Source of the DNA: Candidatus Auribacterota bacterium
Lineage (GTDB): Bacteria > Auribacterota > JAFGBW01
Assembly: GCA_016932965.1 (NCBI GenBank)
Contig: JAFGBW010000039.1
Span: forward strand, 2,140-66,139
Length of the DNA stretch: 64,000 bases
Direction: 5' to 3'
The notes beneath the pieces were generated by a model, which saw only the letters and a list, made by a program, of their open reading frames with translations, was not told the origin of the DNA and searched no databases. Position 1 is the stretch's first letter; each line of letters starts with the position of its first letter. This document shows positions 31,237 through 43,456 of the stretch, in pieces. The translations under genes and the position numbers were made by a program.

Positions 31237-31454
31237 TTTTTTTCCATAAGTCGTTATGTGAAGGACAATCCCCCTCATCTAATAAAGAATATAAGGATGT
31301 CTATCAGAGATTAAATGATTTTAGAGAAGATGGTCAATCTAGAAGTAGCTTAAACCATCTCCTTTTCATCACAAAGGAGTTGACGCGTGGAAGCAGCAAC
31401 TATCTATCATTTACTAAAATAGGTAGATCACCGTTAAAGTTTTTTGAGTTGTGC

Positions 31455-31512
31455 AATTTGACAGATACATGAGTATCAAAAATTAGTATTTCACCACGGA
31501 GAACACGGAGGG
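31455..31512. repeat. Intergenic repeat family 1, copy A (TTTGACAGATAC-N30-TTCACCACGGAGAACACGGAGGG)
   Basis: Aligns with 36765-36822 (copy B1): identical TTTGACAGATAC, and 21/23 identical in the CACCACG[A/G]AGAACACG[A/G]AGGG block. The -35-like TTGACA is at 31458-31463. Confidence 0.65.
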
Positions 31513-31616
31513 AATTAGAATAAAATTGAATTGAAAGTTTTGAGTGATGAATTGGAATGTGGAATGTCATCCTTTGAAAGATCTGTGCTTCCTGCTGTTT
31601 GTTGAAAAAATGGGAA

Positions 31617-32021
31617 TTAACGTTTGGAGAACTGGAAGCGTTTTCTGGCTCCGGCCTGACCGTATTTTTTTCTTTCCTTCATTCGCTGATCCCGGCTCAG
31701 CAAAGAAGCTGATTTCAAGGGAGTCCTCATTTTTTCATCGAATTTACATATGGCTCTTGAAATCCCAAGTCTCAAGGCTTCAGCTTGACCGGATTTTCCG
31801 CCACCGGAAAGAGTGACATTAAAATCAAAACGTTTTTCAGATTTGGAGATGGTCAAGGGAAAAGAAATGACTTTTTTGAGTGATAAGCTCGGAAAATAGG
31901 TCTCCAGGGAAACACCATTGATGTTGAATTTTCCTGAACCAAGCGTCATCCTGACTCTTGCGCTAGCCTTTTTTCTTCGGCCGATGGTCACTACTTCGTT
32001 ATTGGATTTAGACTCTCCCAC
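31617..32021 (-). CDS. rpsI: 30S ribosomal protein S9
   Basis: GRRKKASARVRM...KKYGQAGARKRFQFSKR matches the S9 N- and C-terminal signatures. Confidence 0.9.
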   Translation of the reverse strand: MGESKSNNEVVTIGRRKKASARVRMTLGSGKFNINGVSLETYFPSLSLKKVISFPLTISKSEKRFDFNVTLSGGGKSGQAEALRLGISRAICKFDEKMRTPLKSASLLSRDQRMKERKKYGQAGARKRFQFSKR

Positions 32022-32046
32022 GTTTTGCCTCCGCTATTGGTTTACT

Positions 32047-32475
32047 TTAATGTGTTGCCTTTTTTGGCTGCTGCGCCTGATGAGGATGCGCTTCCCCTTC
32101 ATATGCCCGCAAACGGCTGAACATTCTTTTGCCGATTTTAGTCTTGGGCAACATCCTTTGTACCGCATGTTCCAGAATTCGTCCCGGGTGCTTTTCCAGC
32201 ATTTGTTCGTATGTAACTTTTTTTAGACCCCCAATATAACCAGAATGATGGTGGTACGTTTTCGTTTCCTTTTTATGACCGGTTATCCTGACCTTTTTGC
32301 AATTCAAGACAATCACGTGATCCCCTCCGTCAACATGCGGAGTATACTGAACCTTATTTTTTCCGATCAGAAGTCTTGCCACTTTGCAGGCAAGCCTCCC
32401 CATGACCTGGTCTGTCGCATCAAGGAAATGCCATTTCCGTATGATTTCTTCTTTTTTCAATTCATATGTTTTCAT
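32047..32475 (-). CDS. rplM: 50S ribosomal protein L13
   Basis: MKTYELKKEEIIRKWHFLDATDQVMGRLACKVARLL is the L13 N-terminus. Conserved rplM-rpsI order. Confidence 0.9.
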   Translation of the reverse strand: MKTYELKKEEIIRKWHFLDATDQVMGRLACKVARLLIGKNKVQYTPHVDGGDHVIVLNCKKVRITGHKKETKTYHHHSGYIGGLKKVTYEQMLEKHPGRILEHAVQRMLPKTKIGKRMFSRLRAYEGEAHPHQAQQPKKATH

Positions 32476-33652: not shown

Positions 33653-34684
33653 ATGATCATAGGTTTGACAGGCCGTAACGGTTCAGGAAAAAGTACGGTG
33701 GCTGAATTTTTGATTCATCGGGGTTTTCAATATTATTCATTATCGGATATCATCAGGGAAATCCTTTCAAAAGAAGGAAAGGAATTTTCCCGGGAGAATC
33801 TGATTGAAACCGGTAACAGTCTTCGTTCCACCATGGGGGCGGCCGTTCTTGCGGAGAAGACGGTTGAAAAACTGATGCCGGATCGAAATTATGTCATTGA
33901 TTCCATCCGGAATCCGTCAGAAGTGGAGCGGCTGAGAAAGGTAAAAGGTTTTAAACTCATCAGGGTGGAAGCTCCCACCCGGGTACGGTTTGAACGCTGT
34001 AAATCACGCAACCGAGAGAAGGCGGATCAAGATCTGGACTCTTTCAAAAAGCTCGAGAAGAAGGAGCTGAAAAGTCCTGATCCTGTTTCCCAGCAGCTGG
34101 AGAAGACCGGAAAAATGGCGGATTATATCCTGAGAAACAGCGGTTCGCTGGAGACTCTTCATGAGCAGGTAATCGAAATCTTGAAAGAGGTGACAAAAAA
34201 AATTTTCAGGCCGGGCTGGGACGAGTATTTCATGAATATCGCGAGAGTGGTGGCCCAGCGTTCCAATTGTGTGAAAAGGCATGTGGCTGCGGTCATCGTT
34301 CGTGATAACCGGATCATATCTACGGGCTACAACGGCACTCCCAGAGGGATCAAAAACTGCAATGAGGGAGGATGTCCCCGGTGCAACAGTTTCGGGGTAT
34401 CGGGGGAAAATCTGGGAGAATGCCTCTGTTCCCATGCGGAGGAAAATGCCATCACACAGGCAGCTTATCATGGGGTGTCCATCAGGGATGCAACATTATA
34501 TACTACCTTTTCACCCTGTCTCATATGCACTAAAATGATCATCAATTCCGGTATTCGGGAAGTGGTCTATGACTCCCGTTATTCCTTGAATGCCCTGGAG
34601 CTTCAGCTTTTGAAAGAAGCGGGGATATCCGTCAGAGCGCTCAGAGAGCATCGGGATTTCCCCGATCCGTCTGCCGGCAGATGA
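33653..34684 (+). CDS. Fusion protein: N-terminal P-loop nucleotide-kinase-like domain + C-terminal dCMP/dCTP deaminase (zinc) domain (AvcD/DcdV-like architecture)
   Basis: Walker A GLTGRNGSGKST (nt ~33662-33697). Walker B-like NYVIDSIRN. Deaminase zinc motifs CSHAEENAI -X24- PCLICTKMI (nt ~34420-34540), matching the (H/C)AE-X24-36-PC-X2-C dCMP deaminase signature. Confidence 0.7.
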   Translation: MIIGLTGRNGSGKSTVAEFLIHRGFQYYSLSDIIREILSKEGKEFSRENLIETGNSLRSTMGAAVLAEKTVEKLMPDRNYVIDSIRNPSEVERLRKVKGFKLIRVEAPTRVRFERCKSRNREKADQDLDSFKKLEKKELKSPDPVSQQLEKTGKMADYILRNSGSLETLHEQVIEILKEVTKKIFRPGWDEYFMNIARVVAQRSNCVKRHVAAVIVRDNRIISTGYNGTPRGIKNCNEGGCPRCNSFGVSGENLGECLCSHAEENAITQAAYHGVSIRDATLYTTFSPCLICTKMIINSGIREVVYDSRYSLNALELQLLKEAGISVRALREHRDFPDPSAGR

Positions 34685-34687
34685 ACG

Positions 34688-36733
34688 ATGATGAATCCTG
34701 ATTCTTTTGTTTCATTGATTGAAAAAGGGGAAATCTTCATACAGGATGGTTTCCTGCAGGAATTTCTTTCGTTGACCAGGGAACATCAGGTCTTATTTTT
34801 AAGGGAATTGATTCGTATTTCGGAACGAGACATCATCCCGGGCAGTTTCAGGACCTACGATTTGAGGATTGAAGCAGCCCGTCTTCCCAATCATGTCGTT
34901 TTTTATCTGGGGTTAAAAGCAGGGCCGATATTTAGAGAGATGACTCTGGGTCCGGACGGAAGATCGCTCATGATCGGAGTAGGCAGAGCGTTTGAAAAGG
35001 CCAGGCCTGGAAGTCATCGGATTCAACGCTGCTATATGAACGCATTGGCCCTGACCGGAGCCCGGGTCGTGGACCTGGGGGTCACAACCACCCCGGATAT
35101 TTATTTCGGACTCGCGTACCTGCTTCATCAGGGGCTCCACGTGGCGGTCAACGTGTCGGCCAGCCATAATCCGAAAAAAGACACCGGACTGAAACATTGT
35201 ATCCGGGACAGGGAAGGGTTCATTTACTCCATTTCCTCTGATCAGATGTCCCGGCTCAAAAATCATGTTCTGCCCGGGAAAAAAGAAAAAATACAGAGTG
35301 ATGCCTTTCTTTTAGACACGGATTTTCATTCGCTGGAAGTTTTTTCCGTTGATCATCAGATGCTTCCTGATGAAAATACCCTGAGCCGGTTTCATCATGC
35401 TTTCATTGTCGCCTTCGGACTCCTGGGGAAAAAAGCCATGAATGAAATGACCGTCCGTTATCAGGGTGATTTTTACCGGGTTCTTTCTTCACTGATTCCC
35501 CCGGAAAAACCGGATCAGTTGATCCCCGGATTGTTGAAATGGTTTGAAAAGCCGTCCGGGGAAATTCGGAAATGGCTGGAGTTGTCTCCGGATGTTTCTT
35601 TTCCCGGTGCCTGCGGGGAGAAGCCGTTGAAGGACATGGTTGTGGTTTTAGATCACGGCAGGGGGACGGCTTTCAGAACCATGGAAATTTATTCTGTGCT
35701 GGGCGCCCATGTCATCTGCGTGGATGAGGAAAGGGGGTATAATCCGTTGGAGTCGGGAAACCAGATGCACTGGAGAAAAGCGGTTCTGAAAGCTGCCGGA
35801 GATTTTCCCGGCAGGGAAGTCATCGGCCTGGCCCATGATGAAGATGGAGACCGTCTCGCGGTCATGCGTTCTGACGGGATCAACGTGGAAGGAGACCGGC
35901 TGCTCGTCATTTCCTGCAGGCAGATGGAACCCTCGGAAAAAAAACCGATTGTGATCACAGAAGTCAAATCGAGACCCGAGACAAGGAAGGCCCTGGAGGA
36001 TTCCGGCGTCGTTCCTGTGATTGCACCGACAGGGTTCGCCTTCATCAAAGAGACGGCCATTATACTGGAGAAGAAATTCAGGGAATTCCATGCCTGTTCG
36101 GAAAGCCCGGCGATCCTGAGACTTCACGGAAAGGAAATCAACCTGACAACAAACCTGCCTGTGCAGATGTGGGCGGAACTCAGCGGGCATTTCGGATTGA
36201 GCCAGGGATTGTCCTGGTTTTTTGATGATGCAACCCTCATGGCTGTGGATCTGCTTTTGGGTCTTGAAAAAAAAATTCAATCCGGAACCAGGCCCGGACG
36301 GGCGCTCATTTCTCTGGATGAAAGTTTTCCAAGGCATCCGAGTTCAGGTGAATTGAATATATTTCTCCGGACAACAGATCCGGAGTATGTTCCGACTTCC
36401 GAAGAAAAAGAGGCGTTTGTAGCCTTGTTTGCAGAACTTTTTTCCGCTGATCCGGCAGTGGATCATCTTGATCGTACGGATGGGGTTCAGATTTTTTTTA
36501 AAGACAGTCAGGGGGAATACGGCGGATGGATTCTGATTAGAAAATCCAACAATGAGGACAAGCTGGTTGTGGTGTCGTCAGCCCCCACAAAAGAACAACT
36601 GCATCATGTGGAACAATGCTTTCTGGAAAAAGCGCGTGCTCTTTCTCTTTCTCCTATTTCCGGGCTTGTGCTGACCCAAGAAGAAGAACAGGGAACAACC
36701 CGGAAAGCGGAACCGTATTTTTTGAATCGCTAA
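34688..36733 (+). CDS. alpha-D-phosphohexomutase superfamily protein (PGM/PMM-like, divergent, ~90-aa N-terminal extension)
   Basis: Active-site loop VNVSASHNPKKDTGLK (TASHNP-type phosphoserine), GVTTTPDIYF, Mg loop LAHDEDGDRLAV (DxDxDR). The start codon is 4 bp after the stop of the kinase-deaminase gene. Confidence 0.65.
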   Translation: MMNPDSFVSLIEKGEIFIQDGFLQEFLSLTREHQVLFLRELIRISERDIIPGSFRTYDLRIEAARLPNHVVFYLGLKAGPIFREMTLGPDGRSLMIGVGRAFEKARPGSHRIQRCYMNALALTGARVVDLGVTTTPDIYFGLAYLLHQGLHVAVNVSASHNPKKDTGLKHCIRDREGFIYSISSDQMSRLKNHVLPGKKEKIQSDAFLLDTDFHSLEVFSVDHQMLPDENTLSRFHHAFIVAFGLLGKKAMNEMTVRYQGDFYRVLSSLIPPEKPDQLIPGLLKWFEKPSGEIRKWLELSPDVSFPGACGEKPLKDMVVVLDHGRGTAFRTMEIYSVLGAHVICVDEERGYNPLESGNQMHWRKAVLKAAGDFPGREVIGLAHDEDGDRLAVMRSDGINVEGDRLLVISCRQMEPSEKKPIVITEVKSRPETRKALEDSGVVPVIAPTGFAFIKETAIILEKKFREFHACSESPAILRLHGKEINLTTNLPVQMWAELSGHFGLSQGLSWFFDDATLMAVDLLLGLEKKIQSGTRPGRALISLDESFPRHPSSGELNIFLRTTDPEYVPTSEEKEAFVALFAELFSADPAVDHLDRTDGVQIFFKDSQGEYGGWILIRKSNNEDKLVVVSSAPTKEQLHHVEQCFLEKARALSLSPISGLVLTQEEEQGTTRKAEPYFLNR

Positions 36734-36764
36734 TCTTCGGTCACCACAGGTTTTGGACTCTTAA

Positions 36765-36934
36765 AGTTTGACAGATACGGAAGCATCTTAAAAATAATTA
36801 TCACCACGAAGAACACGAGGGGTAAAAAGAGTTATGAGTGTTGAGTTTTTTTAAGTTTTGAGTTTAAATAAAATTATATTAGTAAACTCATTACTAAAAA
36901 TTTTTTCAAATGTACTTCGTGTTCTTCGTGGTGA
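36765..36934. repeat. Intergenic repeat family 1, copy B: TTTGACAGATAC + 18-bp perfect inverted repeat arms TCACCACGAAGAACACGA (36801-36818) / TCGTGTTCTTCGTGGTGA (36917-36934) with 98-bp AT-rich spacer
   Basis: Read directly. The arms are exact reverse complements. The left half aligns to copy A at 31455-31512. MITE-like or structured-RNA-like. Confidence 0.7.
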
Positions 36935-37048
36935 AATAAAAATATTTAAATATAAAATAAATATGAATGTTATACCATATTCAGTGGCTCATATAAAGAG
37001 GCTATGAGCTGATAATAATTATAAGCTACATAAAAATAATTAAAGAAA

Positions 37049-37081
37049 TTGTTTGACAGAGGAACTATCATATAATATAAT
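37049..37081 (+). promoter_or_regulatory. Near-consensus sigma70-type promoter: TTGACA (37053-37058) -17- TATAAC, with a perfect TATAAT overlapping at 37071-37076
   Basis: Read directly. It lies about 55 bp upstream of the GGAGGA ribosome-binding site and ATG of the twin-HTH gene. A third TTTGACAGA occurrence (also at 31458 and 36768). Confidence 0.55.
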
Positions 37082-37135
37082 CTATTTCTAACATAATGAA
37101 ATGAGTTTTTTGCAATAAGAGATTTGGAGGAAACA

Positions 37136-37885
37136 ATGACAAGGATCATGACAATTGGCAGTCGGGCAATCCGTGAAAGGGGACAATATTTTCATAATGA
37201 TGAAAATGAATTATCCAGGCCGGTCGCGCAATCAGCAGGCTCTCAACAAGACTCAGTGACAGGCGGCGGTGAGTCCATTGCTGAAAAAAAATCGTTTAGT
37301 CATCAGGAATTGATGGCCAAACAGGCTGAAGTAAGAAAAGAACTCATTAAGACCATGTTCAGGAAATATCAGGAATACCGGACCCTGCAGAAAGTGGCTT
37401 CTGATTATGGGTACACCCGTGAGCGTATCCGTCAGTATTTTGCCATAGGAAATAAACTGGGGATCATTGATTACAAGCCTTTCAACCGGCAGAACTTTCA
37501 GAGAATAAAAAATGAACTGACCAAGGATCGCCTGATCAAATATTTGAATGAAATGGGGACAATCCGCCGTATTTCCGAGGAATTGAATGTGGCAGTCAGT
37601 CATGTGAATCGCCTGATCAAATTATATAAATTGAATCTGTCCCAATTCAGGAGGAATTACCTCAAAACCGAAATATGCAAACAGTATTACACCATGGTGG
37701 AACAGCTGGGAGGCAAGCACCCATCCACTTACGATCTCTTGCTCATTAAAAACGGCCGGAATCTCTGGGCAAAAATTTCAAGGAATTGGGGAACCGTAAA
37801 AAAATTCCGGGAAGAGCAGCATATCCAGCTGGCAAGAAAATCAAGAAGAAGAAGAAAGAACAAGAATCTTCCTCCGGCTCAATGA
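37136..37885 (+). CDS. Twin helix-turn-helix protein with two sigma-70 region-4-like modules; putative transcriptional regulator
   Basis: RTLQKVASDYGYTRERIRQYFAIGNKL contains the sigma region 4.2 TRERIRQ hallmark. A second HTH is GTIRRISEELNVAVSHVNRLIKLYKL. Basic C-terminal tail. AT-rich gene. Start taken at the ATG after GGAGGA; the ORF track gives 37124. Confidence 0.5.
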   Translation: MTRIMTIGSRAIRERGQYFHNDENELSRPVAQSAGSQQDSVTGGGESIAEKKSFSHQELMAKQAEVRKELIKTMFRKYQEYRTLQKVASDYGYTRERIRQYFAIGNKLGIIDYKPFNRQNFQRIKNELTKDRLIKYLNEMGTIRRISEELNVAVSHVNRLIKLYKLNLSQFRRNYLKTEICKQYYTMVEQLGGKHPSTYDLLLIKNGRNLWAKISRNWGTVKKFREEQHIQLARKSRRRRKNKNLPPAQ

Positions 37886-37955
37886 GGTTATATTTTTCTC
37901 GAGATTTTTAAGTCTTGAGAGATAAATGATAATGAATTGAGAAATATTAAATTTG

Positions 37956-37993
37956 CCCTCTTTATCCCCTAGGTGATAAAGAGGGCTTTTTTA
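37956..37993 (+). terminator. Rho-independent terminator CCCTCTTTATC-CCCTAGGT-GATAAAGAGGG-CTTTTTTA
   Basis: 11-bp perfect stem, 8-nt loop and U-tract, 70 bp after the twin-HTH stop. Confidence 0.6.
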
Positions 37994-38091
37994 TGCCTGT
38001 CTGATTTTGATAATTCTTTTATTTTCATGAATAGACTGAAGCGGAATCGGTCTGTTTGGAAAAAGAGTGAATCTCCGAAATGATTGACCCC

Positions 38092-38120
38092 TTGACAAAG
38101 TAGATATTTACAAGTATTAT
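38092..38120 (+). promoter_or_regulatory. Near-consensus sigma70-type promoter TTGACA -17- TATTAT upstream of the GWD-like gene
   Basis: TTGACA at 38092-38097, 17-nt spacer, TATTAT at 38115-38120. The start codon is at 38162. Confidence 0.5.
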
Positions 38121-38161: not shown

Positions 38162-41100
38162 ATGATAGGTCACAAGAATTTTTTTATTTGCATGATTGCC
38201 TGGTTTTTATCGACCGGATTTTTATGCCAACCGGTTCAATGTTTTTCGCAATCTGTGGATTCTTCTTTTCTGGCTCCTTCGCATTCAGCCCAAGACCTGA
38301 CCCCCATCATGGTATTAGCCGGAAAAATGCAGGGAAATCAGCCTGTTATCTGGGATGTTTCTGCAACAGGAGTGAATAAAAAAGTAATCATTGTTGTTAA
38401 GAGCAGAGAGAGAGTGCATGTTCACTGGGGTAAAAGCCGCTACGGGAATTGGGAAATTCCCCCGGAAGCCATTTGGCCGGATCACACAACAAAGATGGAT
38501 GATAAGGCGGTGCAAACAGCCTTACAGCCTGTTTCGGATAATATCCGGGTTTTTTCAGTCACTATTCCCAACTCCATGGAATTCAATGAACTGGAATTTG
38601 TGCTTTTCTATCCTGACCGTCCCCCTCACAATCAGTGGGTTAAAGACGGAAACAGGAATTATAAAATTACCGTTAAGGACGATCCTGGACTGGAAGAAAT
38701 GGCTGGTGAAACCAAGAGTTGGATTCACACCATGATAGAAGGTGAAAGAGGGGAGCATGGCCGGAGTCTGATGCATAGAAATAAATTTGTTTGCGAATTG
38801 CTTGGCAGATTTCCTCATTGCAAAGAATTTTTCAGCACCCTGGCAGTGTACATGAGATACAACCGGCTTGGAGTCCTGCCGTGGCAGAGAGGTTATAATA
38901 CGACGCCAAGAGAAATGACTGCGAGCGTTGACAGATTGAATGAGACTATTTCAAGATTGATGATCACGGATTCTAAACATTATTCGATGGTCAGATTATT
39001 GATGAGTTTTTTAACCCTTGGCGGAGAAAATGGACAGCAAATCCGCGATAATATTTTGCATATTTTACAGAATAACGGGGTCCGGGGGACTACTTTTCTG
39101 GAACAATGGCACCAGAAATTACACAACAATGCCACCCCTGATGATATTGGAATCTGTGATGCTTATCTGGCTTTTTTAAGAAGTAATGGAGATAAAGGTA
39201 CATTTTATCGGGTCTTATGGGAGGGGTATGGAATTTCCAGGGAAAAACTGGCAAGTTATGAGAGACCCATTACGGTTGAGCCTGAGTTTTACGGATATGC
39301 CAAAGATGGTTTGATCCGTGATTTTGAAGCTTATCTGGAGCTCAACAGGAAAGTCCATTCCAGGGGTGATTTATTCCGGGCAAAAGCAAATGCTGAAAAA
39401 TATGATGCGCCAGGATTGAATAAGCCGCTGTGGGATTTTTTTACTTTGAAATATCAGGTGGAGACCTCACAGGTGGAGCAAGGCTGGGTTAAATTATTGG
39501 ACAAGCTGGTTGAAGTGCGGAGAGAGCTGCGGAGACTCATTTTTGCGGGAGGCGACTGGTGGTATCTGAGGGATTTAGTATTTTTGGATTTAAGTCTGGA
39601 AGAATATTCCAGGACCATTTCTGACAAAATCTCAGAACAAGTTAACGACCAGGAAATCATGTGGGAAGCAGCTAGGAATTTAAGCCTTCAACTTGAAAAT
39701 ATTGTACTCAGTTCTGATGCAGACGATTGGGATATGCTGGAAATCAATATCATAAAAAGAGAATGGGACAAGATTCAACAAGAGCCGATTAAAGACGAAC
39801 AATGGCATTTGCATTCCAAAGCTATTCTGGACCGTTTGCAGAGAGTCATTGGAGACCGTATTCAAAAGGAGACTGAACTGCTTCAGCCCAAGGCTGAACT
39901 ATTAGGAAACCAGGTCCTTGCAGAAAAAGACAAATGGGCCATTCCTCTTTTTAGCGAAGAACTGGTCCGGGGTTCCCCTCTATTTTCTATAGCCAATATT
40001 TTGAAACCCCTGCGCAAGGCAGCCAGACAAAAAGCTCTCTTGCCTCCCTGGGATGTCATTGTGCCTGGCAGAGTTTCTGCAGAAGTGAGGAAAGCAAAAT
40101 CATTGAAAGAAATTTTGGCAGGAATACAACCGGGAGACAGGATCATTGCTGTTGTCAAAGACCTGGATGGAAGCGAAGACATTCCTCCCCAGATAGCAGG
40201 GATTATCAGCCAAAGGGAAGTGGATATCACATCGCATCTGGCTGTCAGGGCAAGGAATTTAAAAGTTCCCTTTGTTTTCATTGATTCGGAAGAAGAATTT
40301 CAGACCGTTTATCAAAATGACCGTCCTGTCAAACTTCATGTTTTTGAAGGCATGACAAAACCCTGGCAGGTTTATACAGGGGATTTAAGCATGGTCAGTA
40401 TCCCTGCCGAAATTCCTGAAATCACCATCCCTTCTGTTGATCTGACAGCAGAACCTGCCTGTCTAAAAATACAGGAATTCACAATGGATAAGGTCGGGCC
40501 AAAAGGTTCCCAGATAAAGCAATTGATGGAAGACGTGAGTGAGAAGAAAGACGTGACAATTCCTAATTCAGTTGATGTGCCGTATGGAGTTTATCAGGCA
40601 GTGCTTAAAGATAAAAACAATTTAGAAATAGCACAACAAATACAAGAGTTAATTGCAAGAGCGGACGCTGAAACTGCAAGAGATGCCGCCAAGCAGTATA
40701 TTGCGGAGATAGAGAGATTGACTAAAACATTAGTGATACCTGATGAGATTTTAAAGCCTATTTTAGATGCGATAAAACAAGAGATAGGAGAGGATAAAAT
40801 TCTGATGGTGCGTTCTTCAGCTAACGGGGAGGATCTGGAAAAATACGCCGGCGCAGGTTTATATGAATCTTATTTTAATGTTTCATTGGATAAGGTGGAG
40901 CAACATATCAAATGGGTGTGGGCTTCCAAATGGACGGAACGCGCGTACTGGAGCAGGCGCGATATGAAAATTGACCATGACCAGATCCATGTTTCAGCGC
41001 TTATTCAGGAATGTTTTCATTTTGATTATTCCTTTGTGATTCATACGGTCAATCCGGTTAACAATGATCCGGATGAAGTCATGATTGAGGTTGCCCAGGG

Positions 41101-41512
41101 GCTGGGGGAAGCCATCGTTGCCAATTATCCGGGGAGCGCCTATCGTTTCATTTATAATAAAAAAACACATGAAGTCAGGCGCATCGCCTTTGCCAGTAAA
41201 AGTCTGAAATGCATTATCAAAGACGGCCAACTGCAATTGGTTTCAGTTGACTACAGCGATGATTTCCTGGCAGGACCAAAAGAGCAATGGGAGGAAGTGA
41301 TAAGGTCTATCGGTGAAGCAGGATGTTTGATTGAAGAAAAAAGGGGAGGGAATGCCCAGGATATCGAAGGAGGGTATTTTTCCAGGTATGCAGACAAGCC
41401 GGATATCCTGGGTTTGGTCCAGACGAGGGACCAGATGATTGTAGAGATTGTAACGGAGAAGCCTGTTGGACCAGCGGCGGAACCACCGGACGCAGTTTTG
41501 ACTGCGGCATGA
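38162..41512 (+). CDS. alpha-glucan,water dikinase (GWD)-like protein: N-terminal hydrophobic export/anchor segment, CBM-like domain, large unknown middle region, phosphohistidine domain, C-terminal PEP-synthase/PPDK-type nucleotide-binding domain
   Basis: The His-domain motif DITSHLAVRARNLKVPFVF (nt ~40222-40280) resembles the plant GWD catalytic-His motif SHVSVRARN. The nucleotide-binding domain shows MVRSSANGEDLEKYAGAGLYESYFNV, VWASKWTERAYWSRRDMKIDHDQIHVSALIQE and VAQGLGEAIV (PPDK_N-like, nt ~40500-41330). The His domain precedes the ATP domain, as in GWD and unlike PEP synthase. Confidence 0.75.
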   Translation: MIGHKNFFICMIAWFLSTGFLCQPVQCFSQSVDSSFLAPSHSAQDLTPIMVLAGKMQGNQPVIWDVSATGVNKKVIIVVKSRERVHVHWGKSRYGNWEIPPEAIWPDHTTKMDDKAVQTALQPVSDNIRVFSVTIPNSMEFNELEFVLFYPDRPPHNQWVKDGNRNYKITVKDDPGLEEMAGETKSWIHTMIEGERGEHGRSLMHRNKFVCELLGRFPHCKEFFSTLAVYMRYNRLGVLPWQRGYNTTPREMTASVDRLNETISRLMITDSKHYSMVRLLMSFLTLGGENGQQIRDNILHILQNNGVRGTTFLEQWHQKLHNNATPDDIGICDAYLAFLRSNGDKGTFYRVLWEGYGISREKLASYERPITVEPEFYGYAKDGLIRDFEAYLELNRKVHSRGDLFRAKANAEKYDAPGLNKPLWDFFTLKYQVETSQVEQGWVKLLDKLVEVRRELRRLIFAGGDWWYLRDLVFLDLSLEEYSRTISDKISEQVNDQEIMWEAARNLSLQLENIVLSSDADDWDMLEINIIKREWDKIQQEPIKDEQWHLHSKAILDRLQRVIGDRIQKETELLQPKAELLGNQVLAEKDKWAIPLFSEELVRGSPLFSIANILKPLRKAARQKALLPPWDVIVPGRVSAEVRKAKSLKEILAGIQPGDRIIAVVKDLDGSEDIPPQIAGIISQREVDITSHLAVRARNLKVPFVFIDSEEEFQTVYQNDRPVKLHVFEGMTKPWQVYTGDLSMVSIPAEIPEITIPSVDLTAEPACLKIQEFTMDKVGPKGSQIKQLMEDVSEKKDVTIPNSVDVPYGVYQAVLKDKNNLEIAQQIQELIARADAETARDAAKQYIAEIERLTKTLVIPDEILKPILDAIKQEIGEDKILMVRSSANGEDLEKYAGAGLYESYFNVSLDKVEQHIKWVWASKWTERAYWSRRDMKIDHDQIHVSALIQECFHFDYSFVIHTVNPVNNDPDEVMIEVAQGLGEAIVANYPGSAYRFIYNKKTHEVRRIAFASKSLKCIIKDGQLQLVSVDYSDDFLAGPKEQWEEVIRSIGEAGCLIEEKRGGNAQDIEGGYFSRYADKPDILGLVQTRDQMIVEIVTEKPVGPAAEPPDAVLTAA

Positions 41513-41524
41513 TGAGAATGTGTC

Positions 41525-43204
41525 ATGGATAATAGCAAACCAATTCAGAAACGATTGAATCTCCCGGTTTTTCTTTTAGGAAAAGCTGGAAGAATCAGGG
41601 GTCAATCAATTTTTTTAATCCTATCCGGTTTCATCAGCAGTCTTCTTATTTTTTTCCATACACCGGCGTTTGCTGACCTCTGTTTATTCTGTCTTGCCCC
41701 ACAAGAGCAGACTTCAAGAGAAATGGCGGTTTTTACTTCCATTTCGAAAGAGCTGAACAGGGAAGGGCAAGTGGCTTTCAGAAGCATTCAAAGACCAGGC
41801 GAGGTCGATCTGATTGCTGCGGTGAAGTCAAGTGAGCCCGTCTATCTCCACTGGGGAGTTTCCCGTTTCGGGAAATGGGAGATGCCGCCTGAAGACATCC
41901 GGCCTTTGGATTCAATACCTAATCAAAAAGGGACATCTCTTCAAACCCGGATGCAGTCTTTATCGGGTGATATCCGGTTTGTAAAAATAACTGTGCCTGA
42001 ACATGTTGATTGCAGCGAAATCGCTTTTGTTTTTTATTATCCGGAACGGGCGAAGGAGCAACAGTGGGTTAAAGACGGAGACAAGGACTATTATCTGGCA
42101 GATATTCACACATTCCCGGAATTAATTAGCTGCAATGAACAGACAAGGACCCTGGAATTCAACAAACATGAACTGAAAAAATGGATCATTGGATTGATTG
42201 AAAGAGGACTTCTTCCCATGCTGTTTTTTGATTTTGATGATACGTTGAATCTGGGGTATGGCGGATATATGCCTGACGAATCCATTGGGGCTTTGGATCA
42301 GCTTGTCAATGCCGGCGGGATCATTGCCATTCATTCAGGGATAGATTTATTATGGGGAAGCCAGAAAATTCTCCGTTTGACGCAATCCAGATTTCCGTTT
42401 CATTTTCTGGTCTTGAGCACGGGTAAAGATATTTTTGCCTGGAGTCATCAGCATAAGGCCTATTTAAAACTTCCATTCTCAGGAGACAATAAGAGCGATG
42501 CTTTAATGAAACTGGCCTCTTTTTTAGGAATTCTGCCTCATCAAATGGGGTATTGCTGTGATTTTCCCGGAAGCGGTGATAAACAGGACGGGATTGATGA
42601 TCCGACATTATCTTCAAACATCGGTTTCATAGCCAATGTAAGTCCGTTTGGAAGAATGATGAAACTTCCCGCTGAATCTTCAACCAGACTGATTCAGCCT
42701 GATGATAACCCTTTGACAAGGCAGGCTAAAGGCGCCTGTAATTACATGGCTGCGGCAAGCGATGTGTTGCGACAATATGGTCAAACACCGAATCAAGCCA
42801 TCAGTGATATCAACACCAAGTTACTGGCCGCTGGTTTTAAACTGCCGGTCCTGGAACCCCGTGTGGATCAATATACTGTCTGGACCAAGGACAATCAGGT
42901 GTCAGCTATCCCTGAAGGACATGTTCTGCGTGTTGAGACTGACAAACCCGGAATGGTCTATGCCGGAAAAGAAGGAATCAGCGGCTGGGAACGAACGTAC
43001 GCTATTCCCCTAAGATTAGAAAGCGGTAAATGGATAGCTGATATTTTAGACCCTGAAGTCAATACCTTTACTTTTATCGAGAACGATCCTCTTGATGAAA
43101 AAAAGGTCGGGTGGCTAGGAAAAAAAGGCGCAAATTATTATTTTTCCAGATACGCTGTTCCATCCGGGACGTCTCATGGGTCCCAAGCTTCGTTTTCAGC
43201 CTGA
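41525..43204 (+). CDS. CBM-like domain + HAD-superfamily phosphatase-like protein with N-terminal signal peptide
   Basis: The N-terminal hydrophobic segment ends in AFA|DL (AxA signal-peptidase site). Residues ~93-195 are about 45% identical to residues ~74-175 of the preceding dikinase (LHWGVSRFGKWEMPPEDI...QWVKDGDKDY vs VHWGKSRYGNWEIPPEAI...QWVKDGNRNY). The HAD motif I FFDFDDTL is at nt ~42225-42245. Confidence 0.6.
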   Translation: MDNSKPIQKRLNLPVFLLGKAGRIRGQSIFLILSGFISSLLIFFHTPAFADLCLFCLAPQEQTSREMAVFTSISKELNREGQVAFRSIQRPGEVDLIAAVKSSEPVYLHWGVSRFGKWEMPPEDIRPLDSIPNQKGTSLQTRMQSLSGDIRFVKITVPEHVDCSEIAFVFYYPERAKEQQWVKDGDKDYYLADIHTFPELISCNEQTRTLEFNKHELKKWIIGLIERGLLPMLFFDFDDTLNLGYGGYMPDESIGALDQLVNAGGIIAIHSGIDLLWGSQKILRLTQSRFPFHFLVLSTGKDIFAWSHQHKAYLKLPFSGDNKSDALMKLASFLGILPHQMGYCCDFPGSGDKQDGIDDPTLSSNIGFIANVSPFGRMMKLPAESSTRLIQPDDNPLTRQAKGACNYMAAASDVLRQYGQTPNQAISDINTKLLAAGFKLPVLEPRVDQYTVWTKDNQVSAIPEGHVLRVETDKPGMVYAGKEGISGWERTYAIPLRLESGKWIADILDPEVNTFTFIENDPLDEKKVGWLGKKGANYYFSRYAVPSGTSHGSQASFSA

Positions 43205-43456
43205 AAATATCCCAAGTTTTTCTAACATACGATGTTTTGTTTTGACAAAACATCGTACACCTTTGTTAAGAAATTCAACACCAGTACAAATGCGAACAGC
43301 ATTTTTCGTTTGAATTCGATAATTTTCTGGTCATTAAGAATATATAACTTATTGCTAGTGAACAGGATATAAAAATGTCTATCTCAGATATTGCTCTTGG
43401 CACAAATATTGTTTCTTTCTGGTCTGCATTGGAAATAACAACTAAGGAAACCAGCC

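Follow-up and report, generated by a model that had tools for sequence, protein, structure and literature searches.

Here, we examine a small gene carried by a 64,000-nucleotide stretch of DNA from a Candidatus Auribacterota bacterium (contig JAFGBW010000039.1 of assembly GCA_016932965.1; the whole stretch is called the window below). The gene, located at 37136-37885 on the + strand, encodes a protein of 249 amino acids in which a helix-turn-helix (HTH) module homologous to region 4 of sigma-70 factors precedes two other modules and a basic tail. From its sequence features and predicted structure, we consider it reasonably probable that the product is a stand-alone DNA-binding protein that uses its first module to read a GACA-containing, -35-like motif, and which serves as an abundant global or promoter-proximal regulator or as a nucleoid-associated protein. 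A previous sequence-only reading of the window had noticed the HTH modules, the sigma-like motif and the strong promoter of this gene; these observations are confirmed, while the interpretation attached to them, a regulator or anti-sigma-like protein at the head of a glucan-dikinase block, is partly supported.

A sigma-4-like module in a three-module protein

Module 1 (residues 56-110; 37301-37465, + strand) matches the Pfam model Sigma70_r4 over residues 78-100 with 24.1 bits (E 2.6e-5). When a profile of the nine close homologs was compared with all sequences of the Protein Data Bank (PDB), region 4 of RpoS, SigA and RpoD gave the best matches (E 0.0017-0.004), with the RpoS alignment placing TLEDVGREIGLTRERVRQ against tlekvakdyGytrervrq. 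The recognition-helix motif TRERIRQ occupies residues 94-100 (37415-37435), and the profile and PDB matches uphold the sequence-only reading in taking it for the hallmark of sigma-70 region 4.2. In Escherichia coli sigma-70, residues R584, E585, R586, R588 and Q589 of this motif (T-R-E-R-I-R-Q) contact the -35 hexamer TTGACA. The window protein carries the identical heptad, and its family keeps the heptad more strongly than most other residues.

The remaining parts of a sigma factor are missing. No match to Sigma70_r2 or Sigma70_r3 was found in Pfam even at E<=10, and the NCBIfam sigma models (RpoS, sigma-32 and extracytoplasmic function) match with their region-4 ends only, at 12-18 bits against cut-offs of 43-394. 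With no region 2, and with residues 1-50 predicted to be disordered, a sigma factor is ruled out, as had already been concluded from the letters of the sequence. A LuxR/GerE regulator is likewise ruled out, since no GerE-type profile matches the protein.

The fold was modelled with AlphaFold2 from a nine-sequence alignment. The model reaches a pLDDT of about 90 at residues 56-230, falls below 40 at residues 1-50, and arranges eleven helices in three modules (residues 56-108, 118-163 and 168-227). The N-terminal tail (residues 1-55; 37136-37300, + strand) is non-conserved and predicted to be disordered, with a pLDDT of 35-40 and with a length and sequence that vary among the orthologs. Module 1 is modelled as helices 56-81, 84-91 and 95-108 (pLDDT 81-91). 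Module 2 (residues 111-166; 37466-37633, + strand) appears to be an HTH of the HTH_23/28/29 type, as judged by the model and by sub-threshold Pfam matches over residues 136-165 (HTH_29, E 0.0023; HTH_23, E 0.0031). It is modelled as helices 118-127, 130-140, 143-150 and 154-163, the last two of which form the HTH (pLDDT about 90), and the corresponding sequence GTIRRISEELNVAVSHVNRLIKL spans residues 141-163 (37556-37624). Both HTHs named in the sequence-only reading are thus supported by Pfam, the second below threshold, and by structure modelling, which predicts them at a pLDDT of about 90; a third conserved module, and the family to which the protein belongs, had escaped it.

This third module (residues 167-232; 37634-37831, + strand) is a four-helix domain with the signature HPSTYDLL...NGRNLWAKISRNWG..F.EE. 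Its HPSTYDLL-IKNGRNLWAKISRNWGTxKKFREE block is the best-conserved part of the orthologs and, modelled alone, the module gives a confident four-helix fold (pLDDT 90). Module 3 is a probable divergent homing-endonuclease-associated repeat (HEAR). The corresponding Pfam model, PF18780 (HNH_repeat), has a gathering score of 26 bits and is matched below that threshold by 3 of 7 relatives (20.9, 16.1 and 12.7 bits), the best match among them (E 4.7e-4) extending over the whole model length; PF18780 is also found in the precomputed annotation of two distant members. Module 3 of the window protein itself has no PF18780 match. The protein ends in a Lys/Arg tail, recognized by its composition (the KSRRRRKNKNLPPAQ region; 37832-37882, + strand): residues 231-249 have a pI of 12, with 8 K+R and no D+E, and all orthologs likewise carry a basic tail.

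HTH-fold likenesses listed for the protein include NtrC/Fis-type domains, GcrA, the bipartite Tc3 transposase domain, SpoIIID and Mu Mor/C, together with region 4 of SigD, SigF, FliA and WhiG. A Foldseek comparison of the full model with the PDB gave no match below E 0.5.

Relatives, domain partners and genomic contexts

A word-indexed search returned nine close homologs (45-89% identity), all of them hypothetical proteins, and a scan of one genome per GTDB species with the ortholog alignment added one further short contig of a metagenome-assembled genome (MAG). The orthologous group is therefore rare. The wider family is larger: an exhaustive profile search collected 334 cluster representatives, mostly from Omnitrophota and Nitrospirota MAGs, of which 189 scored below 1e-10. 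A unit of about 170 residues is embedded here in proteins of 175-710 amino acids. When the ortholog set was compared with eight distant members using hhalign, the two aligned over 167 columns covering all three modules (99.9% probability, E 2e-36).

The sigma-like motif is conserved across this distance. In an alignment of 41 members with about 25% identity to the window protein, E96 and R99 of the sigma 4.2 motif are invariant, R95, R97, Q100 and L84 are at least 90% conserved, and the module-3 signature is likewise conserved. Sigma70_r4 is matched by 40 of the 41 members, and HTH_28 or HTH_23 by 13-14 of them. The window protein has the three modules in the family order, along with both the RERxRQ and the GxHP(S/T)T...W..I.R.WG..F signatures. 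Where the source of a relative is named, it is a MAG of Candidatus Omnitrophota, Nitrospiria, Nitrospiraceae or Manganitrophaceae, and all the proteins are hypothetical. On these alignments, the window protein is a member of an unnamed, uncharacterised three-module family of Auribacterota, Omnitrophota and Nitrospirota.

Further searches left this picture unchanged. A cluster look-up of ten distant members gave no protein names, a word-indexed search with the 41-member alignment returned nothing beyond proteins already known, a scan of viral contigs produced mostly sigma-4-only matches, and a PHROGs search gave weak or chance matches only. No Pfam, NCBIfam, PHROG or PADLOC model spans the family unit as a whole.

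Many relatives carry additional domains. Among the 120 relatives listed, the C-terminal domain of the RNA polymerase alpha subunit (alpha-CTD) occurs in about 19, an XRE-type HTH in 6 and C-terminal winged helices in several, and in one relative (P0016) the unit is fused to a MORC-like HATPase_c_3 ATPase. The alpha-CTD domains, and the homology to sigma region 4, the part of sigma that binds the beta-flap tip, could point to a polymerase-binding surrogate of sigma region 4, acting either as one half of a split sigma factor or as a beta-flap competitor with an anti-sigma-like effect. Split or two-subunit sigma factors do exist, such as SigO-RsoA and T4 gp55/gp33. We nevertheless regard such a role as very improbable, because the segment that follows the recognition helix departs from that of sigma factors and no region-2-like partner is found nearby. 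In sigma factors this segment helps form the flap-binding surface, and here it is replaced by a family-specific motif; no region-2-only partner gene adjoins the family gene in any of six loci. Moreover, as the protein has two more DNA-binding modules and a basic tail, its ligand is more likely to be DNA than polymerase. Nothing was found to support the anti-sigma-like role suggested by the sequence-only reading, and no sigma gene adjoins the gene in the six loci inspected.

The orthologs lie in housekeeping surroundings. A MazG gene is found downstream in L001, L003 and L011 and a CheX gene in L003 and L010 (together spanning L001 8680-9555, L003 8722-10072, L010 1783-2268 and L011 905-1771), and the other neighbours include genes for DNA polymerase III alpha, GMP synthase and PurL. 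The window was searched for MazG, CheX and a paralog of the protein, and none was found.

For the distant members, the setting is different. A HATPase_c_3 gene directly adjoins the family gene in 4 of 5 chromosomal loci: in L023, L024 and L025 the family gene lies downstream of a protein of 573-585 amino acids with HTH_17 and HATPase_c_3 domains, and in L027 it lies upstream of a 558-amino-acid HATPase_c_3 protein (pair or fusion coordinates: L023 6264-9404, L024 6262-8990, L025 6254-8834, L027 6001-9018 and L008 987-2420). Genes for a Trypsin_2 protease, large serine recombinases or a Dam-type methyltransferase occur near these pairs, the fusion protein P0016 is flanked by TIR and HSDR_N genes, and one distant member is encoded on a phage-like contig that also carries genes for a D5-type primase and a P22-type portal. 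Judged by such arrangements, the pair of distant member and MORC-like ATPase looks like an undescribed mobile-element or defence-type module.

The window protein could accordingly be seen as an orphan or domesticated DNA-targeting subunit of a module of this sort, whose ATPase lies elsewhere or which has been co-opted as a repressor. The ATPase pairs, the fusion beside TIR and HSDR_N, the nearby recombinases, protease or methyltransferase and the phage-like contig all count in its favour. However, a HATPase_c_3 gene was not found near the window gene nor in the five orthologous loci, the neighbours there are housekeeping genes with MazG or CheX kept downstream in L001, L003, L010 and L011, and a partner-less member (L026) exists outside this lineage as well. 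PADLOC 2.0 gave chance-level matches only for the window protein (E 0.003-0.004) and none for its relatives. We consider this origin decidedly improbable.

Promoter, -35 boxes and neighbouring genes

In the list of open reading frames (ORFs) of the window, the frame runs from a TTG at 37124 to 37885 on the + strand. We placed the start at the in-frame ATG at 37136, because the Shine-Dalgarno sequence GGAGG (37126-37130, + strand) ends 5 nt before it and the L001 ortholog shows the identical GGAGGAACAATG arrangement of ribosome-binding site and start codon. The coding sequence is thus taken as 37136-37885 (+ strand; 249 amino acids and a TGA stop). A database twin that is 100% identical, the MAG hypothetical protein JW774_01710 of a Candidatus Aureabacteria bacterium, is annotated with a start four codons later.

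Upstream of the gene lies a predicted sigma-70-type promoter (37053-37081, + strand), with the -35 hexamer TTGACA at 37053-37058, a 17-nt spacer and the -10 hexamer TATAAT at 37076-37081. The sequence-only reading had called it nearly perfect; it was right about a strong consensus promoter and understated the match, which is 12 of 12 positions in a consensus scan. This is the sole perfect TTGACA-N16-18-TATAAT on either strand of the window (0.03 expected; present in 3 of 100 shuffles), and an A/T-rich, UP-like tract lies immediately 5' of it at about 37020-37050. We infer that 37053-37081 acts as the promoter, in which case transcription would start near 37088.

Seventy bases past the stop codon begins an intrinsic terminator (37955-37996, + strand; 12-bp stem with 6 G-C pairs, 8-nt loop and TTTTTT), found both by a terminator scan and as inverted repeat I6, which is the best terminator-like site of the region. 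A separate promoter matching 11 of 12 consensus positions (38092-38120) and containing a perfect TTGACA serves the dikinase-like gene that starts at 38162. With its own promoter, its own terminator and a separate promoter downstream, the gene is a self-contained, independent monocistronic unit, and it is probably highly expressed. The spacers flanking it have a GC content of 27-30%, as compared with 44% for the window. An Rfam search of the flanking DNA gave no match at the gathering score and chance-level matches only at E<1, and a search for direct repeats of a mobile cassette around the gene returned just an unconvincing 34-nt match (73% identity, E 0.016).

The consensus -35 hexamer recurs upstream of the orthologs. 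Within the window, perfect TTGACA is enriched in intergenic DNA (8 of 35 copies fall in the non-coding 7%), and it occurs within 200 nt upstream of 4 of 47 genes, that is, of 3 of the 46 other genes. In five of the six orthologous loci, a perfect TTGACA precedes the start codon by 62-151 nt, and TTGACT takes its place in the remaining one. Of the other genes, 2 of 12 in L001 and 2 of 10 in L003 have a perfect hexamer upstream, and about 10% do so overall. By our own arithmetic, the binomial probability of at least five in six at a background of about 15% is about 4e-4. Because it is found in five of six orthologs against this low background, the consensus -35 box can be regarded as a conserved trait of the gene. 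Such conservation fits strong expression, negative autoregulation or both, which the data do not separate.

These features can be joined into a mechanism. The recognition helix of module 1 would enter the major groove at a -35-like motif containing GACA, as sigma region 4 does at TTGACA and the C-terminal domain of WhiA (WhiA-CTD) at GACAC, while modules 2 and 3 and the basic tail would lengthen the contact along the adjoining DNA. Tandem HTH proteins such as the DNA-binding domain of the Tc3 transposase and Myb R2R3 extend their contact along adjacent DNA. An abundant protein of this type may compete with RNA polymerase at strong -35 boxes, its own box included, which would result in negative feedback. 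WhiA contacts GACAC through its C-terminal HTH in a manner very like that of sigma-A region 4 on TTGACA, with homologous or identical residues (PMC10243135). Given this precedent, and because the R-E-R-x-R-Q residues are among the best conserved in the family, a TTGACA-like reading by module 1 is plausible.

Several points weigh against a protein that reads -35 boxes. The Sigma70_r4 score equals the gathering cut-off and does not exceed it. Past the recognition helix, the protein continues with YFxxGNKLGIIDYKPFN, unlike sigma factors, which have IEAKALRKLRHP at this position, and its specificity could therefore differ from TTGACA. The pTM of 0.48 means that the relative placement of the modules is not fixed by the model, and the assignment of module 3 is based on sub-threshold matches. 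Furthermore, TTTGACAGA, which surrounds the hexamer of the gene's promoter, is found exactly three times in the window (31457, 36767 and 37052), a count near chance (1.04 expected; at least three in 6 of 100 shuffles), and the conserved -35 hexamer is fully explicable by selection for a strong promoter without autoregulation. Finally, most of the same data are also fitted by a sequence-unspecific nucleoid protein.

In that alternative, an abundant nucleoid-associated protein would use three weak HTH-type modules and its basic tail to coat or bend AT-rich DNA irrespective of the sequence, and the sigma-4 motif would be an inherited scaffold. The composition of the protein agrees with it: the pI is 10.3 overall and about 10 for each module, and there are 51 K+R against 24 D+E, with 44 K+R in the 194-residue core. 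A monocistronic gene with a maximal promoter and its own terminator, the variable genomic context and flanks of 27-30% GC can be added on the same side. Yet RERxRQ stays among the best-conserved motifs at about 25% identity, which argues for base-specific reading, and we therefore hold a purely unspecific role to be unlikely.

A wider extension of the reading in which module 1 recognizes -35-like motifs may also be considered, although we regard it as quite unlikely in this full form. The family would consist of free-standing promoter readers that use the recognition modules of the polymerase without its polymerase-binding part, alpha-CTD being the module that reads UP elements, and its members would locate strong promoters directly. 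Members on mobile elements would guide the MORC-like ATPase to silence or sense promoters. In Auribacterota, domestication of a copy without a partner would have produced an abundant, self-limiting global repressor, in competition with the housekeeping holoenzyme for consensus -35 boxes.

A more local role was suggested by the neighbouring genes, as the sequence-only reading had put the gene at the head of a glucan-dikinase block and tied it to that block. The gene indeed sits between a phosphoglucomutase (PGM)-like gene upstream (34688-36733) and two dikinase-like genes downstream (38162-41512 and 41525-43204), the dikinase promoter has a perfect TTGACA at 38092, and in one ortholog locus an alpha-amylase gene lies 3.5 kb downstream, all of which would suit a dedicated regulator of the adjacent PGM-like and glucan-water-dikinase-like genes. 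The adjacency stands, but the terminator at 37955-37996 and the promoter at 38092-38120 mean that the gene and the block are not one transcription unit, and an operon with the dikinase genes is ruled out by this terminator, the second promoter and the lack of conserved synteny. Additionally, dikinase and PGM-like genes were absent from all five orthologous loci, as judged by tblastn and locus inspection, and the neighbours retained there are MazG and CheX. The adjacency of glucan genes is thus peculiar to the window genome, the functional tie to the block is not supported, and we give a dedicated local regulator scarcely any chance. The window genome has lost the MazG/CheX arrangement; the gene may have relocated to this position, or the dikinase block may have been inserted beside it.

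The neighbouring genes have features of their own. The first dikinase-like gene (38162-41512) encodes Ig_N_CWD1, GWD1_pHisD and PPDK_N domains, as in alpha-glucan water dikinases, and its product starts with a hydrophobic, signal-peptide-like sequence (MIGHKNFFICMIAWFLSTGFLCQPVQCFSQS) that is odd for an ATP-dependent dikinase; the second (41525-43204) has an Ig-like N-terminal domain only. Right after the second gene lies a perfect 13-bp hairpin (TACGATGTTTTGTTTTGACAAAACATCGTA; 43228-43257) with no T-run, which contains one of the eight intergenic TTGACA hexamers. The 681-amino-acid product of 34688-36733, in which Pfam sees only phosphoglucomutase/phosphomannomutase (PGM/PMM) domain I (E 1e-8), differs from ordinary PGM/PMM enzymes in its much greater length and divergence. 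Before it, 33653-34684 encodes a fusion of an N-terminal AAA_17/AAA_18 domain (nucleoside/nucleotide kinase-like) to a C-terminal dCMP/cytidine deaminase domain.

The sequence-only reading had further noted that TTGACA recurs in a repeat family as well as in the promoter of the gene, and this holds. Two of the TTTGACAGA sites (31457 and 36767) are part of a repeat about 118 nt long, present as two direct copies (36748-36863 and 31438-31545; 69% identity, E 4e-10). Each copy opens with a promoter-like TTTGACAGATAC...AAAAAT/AATTAG, followed by TCACCACGRAGAACACGRRGGG. Within the copy that precedes the HTH gene, its core of 18 nt occurs again as a perfect inverted repeat (36801-36818 and 36917-36934), giving a 134-nt hairpin (dG -50 kcal/mol, z -8.2) within the repeat region at 36748-36934. 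Copy 1 is located just past the 3' end of rpsI, pointing toward this gene; rpsI (S9) forms a pair with rplM (L13) on the - strand (31617-32475), both of which encode fewer than 150 amino acids and are hence missing from the list of long ORFs. Rfam has no match for the repeat, and the ortholog loci lack it; it may represent a small RNA gene or an element resembling miniature inverted-repeat transposable elements. The 17-18-nt CACCACGAAGAACACGA repeat was considered as an operator shared by the orthologs and rejected, as it is absent from all homolog loci.

Comparison with known systems

In a sizeable unannotated family from poorly known phyla (Auribacterota, Omnitrophota and Nitrospirota), one of the most strongly conserved features is the motif with which sigma factors read -35 boxes, and for genome annotation this family merits a name and a profile. 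If the module reads TTGACA or GACA, the family would compete with RNA polymerase for promoters, a simple form of global or mobile-element-driven control. For the window gene in particular, it should not be taken for granted that the glucan-dikinase block is the target.

The closest homology outside the family is to region 4.2 of RpoD, SigA and RpoS, with which module 1 shares the same HTH and the identical T-R-E-R-(I/V)-R-Q motif. In contrast to sigma factors, the window protein lacks regions 1.2-3 and the C-terminal sigma-4 helix, and it adds two DNA-binding modules; because regions 1.2-3 are absent, it cannot recruit polymerase to promoters or open them as sigma does. The distant Omnitrophota and Nitrospirota members are homologous across all three modules. 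They differ in carrying an extra alpha-CTD, XRE HTH or C-terminal winged helix and in usually lying beside, or being fused to, a HATPase_c_3 ATPase, whereas the window protein consists of the unit alone, with no partner and in a housekeeping context. With the bipartite domain of Tc3/IS630 transposases, Myb R2R3 and SpoIIID, the likeness is at the level of the fold only, in a crowded fold class; an IS630/Tc1-type transposase is ruled out, as no DDE/transposase domain was found and nothing follows module 3 and the basic tail.

In the literature, no description was found of the HEAR repeat or of stand-alone sigma-4 proteins beyond the WhiA paper, and the three-module architecture, the alpha-CTD variants and the link to a MORC-like ATPase are not described in the literature found. 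Membership of the WhiA family is ruled out for the window protein by the lack of a LAGLIDADG match in Pfam and by an N-terminus made up of 55 disordered residues. WhiA, a protein of Actinobacteria and Firmicutes, has two N-terminal LAGLIDADG-like domains and a partner, WhiB, and since it was not among the PDB sequence matches, the likeness is one of mechanism and not of family membership. To our knowledge, sigma region 4 is normally found only within sigma factors, and WhiA is the one well-studied case in which its -35-reading chemistry has been reused. As a protein other than a sigma factor that joins a GACAC-reading, sigma-4-like HTH to parts derived from a homing endonuclease, WhiA offers the best functional analogy to the window protein, and a multi-HTH regulator that reuses the sigma-4 module is, as a kind, already known through it.

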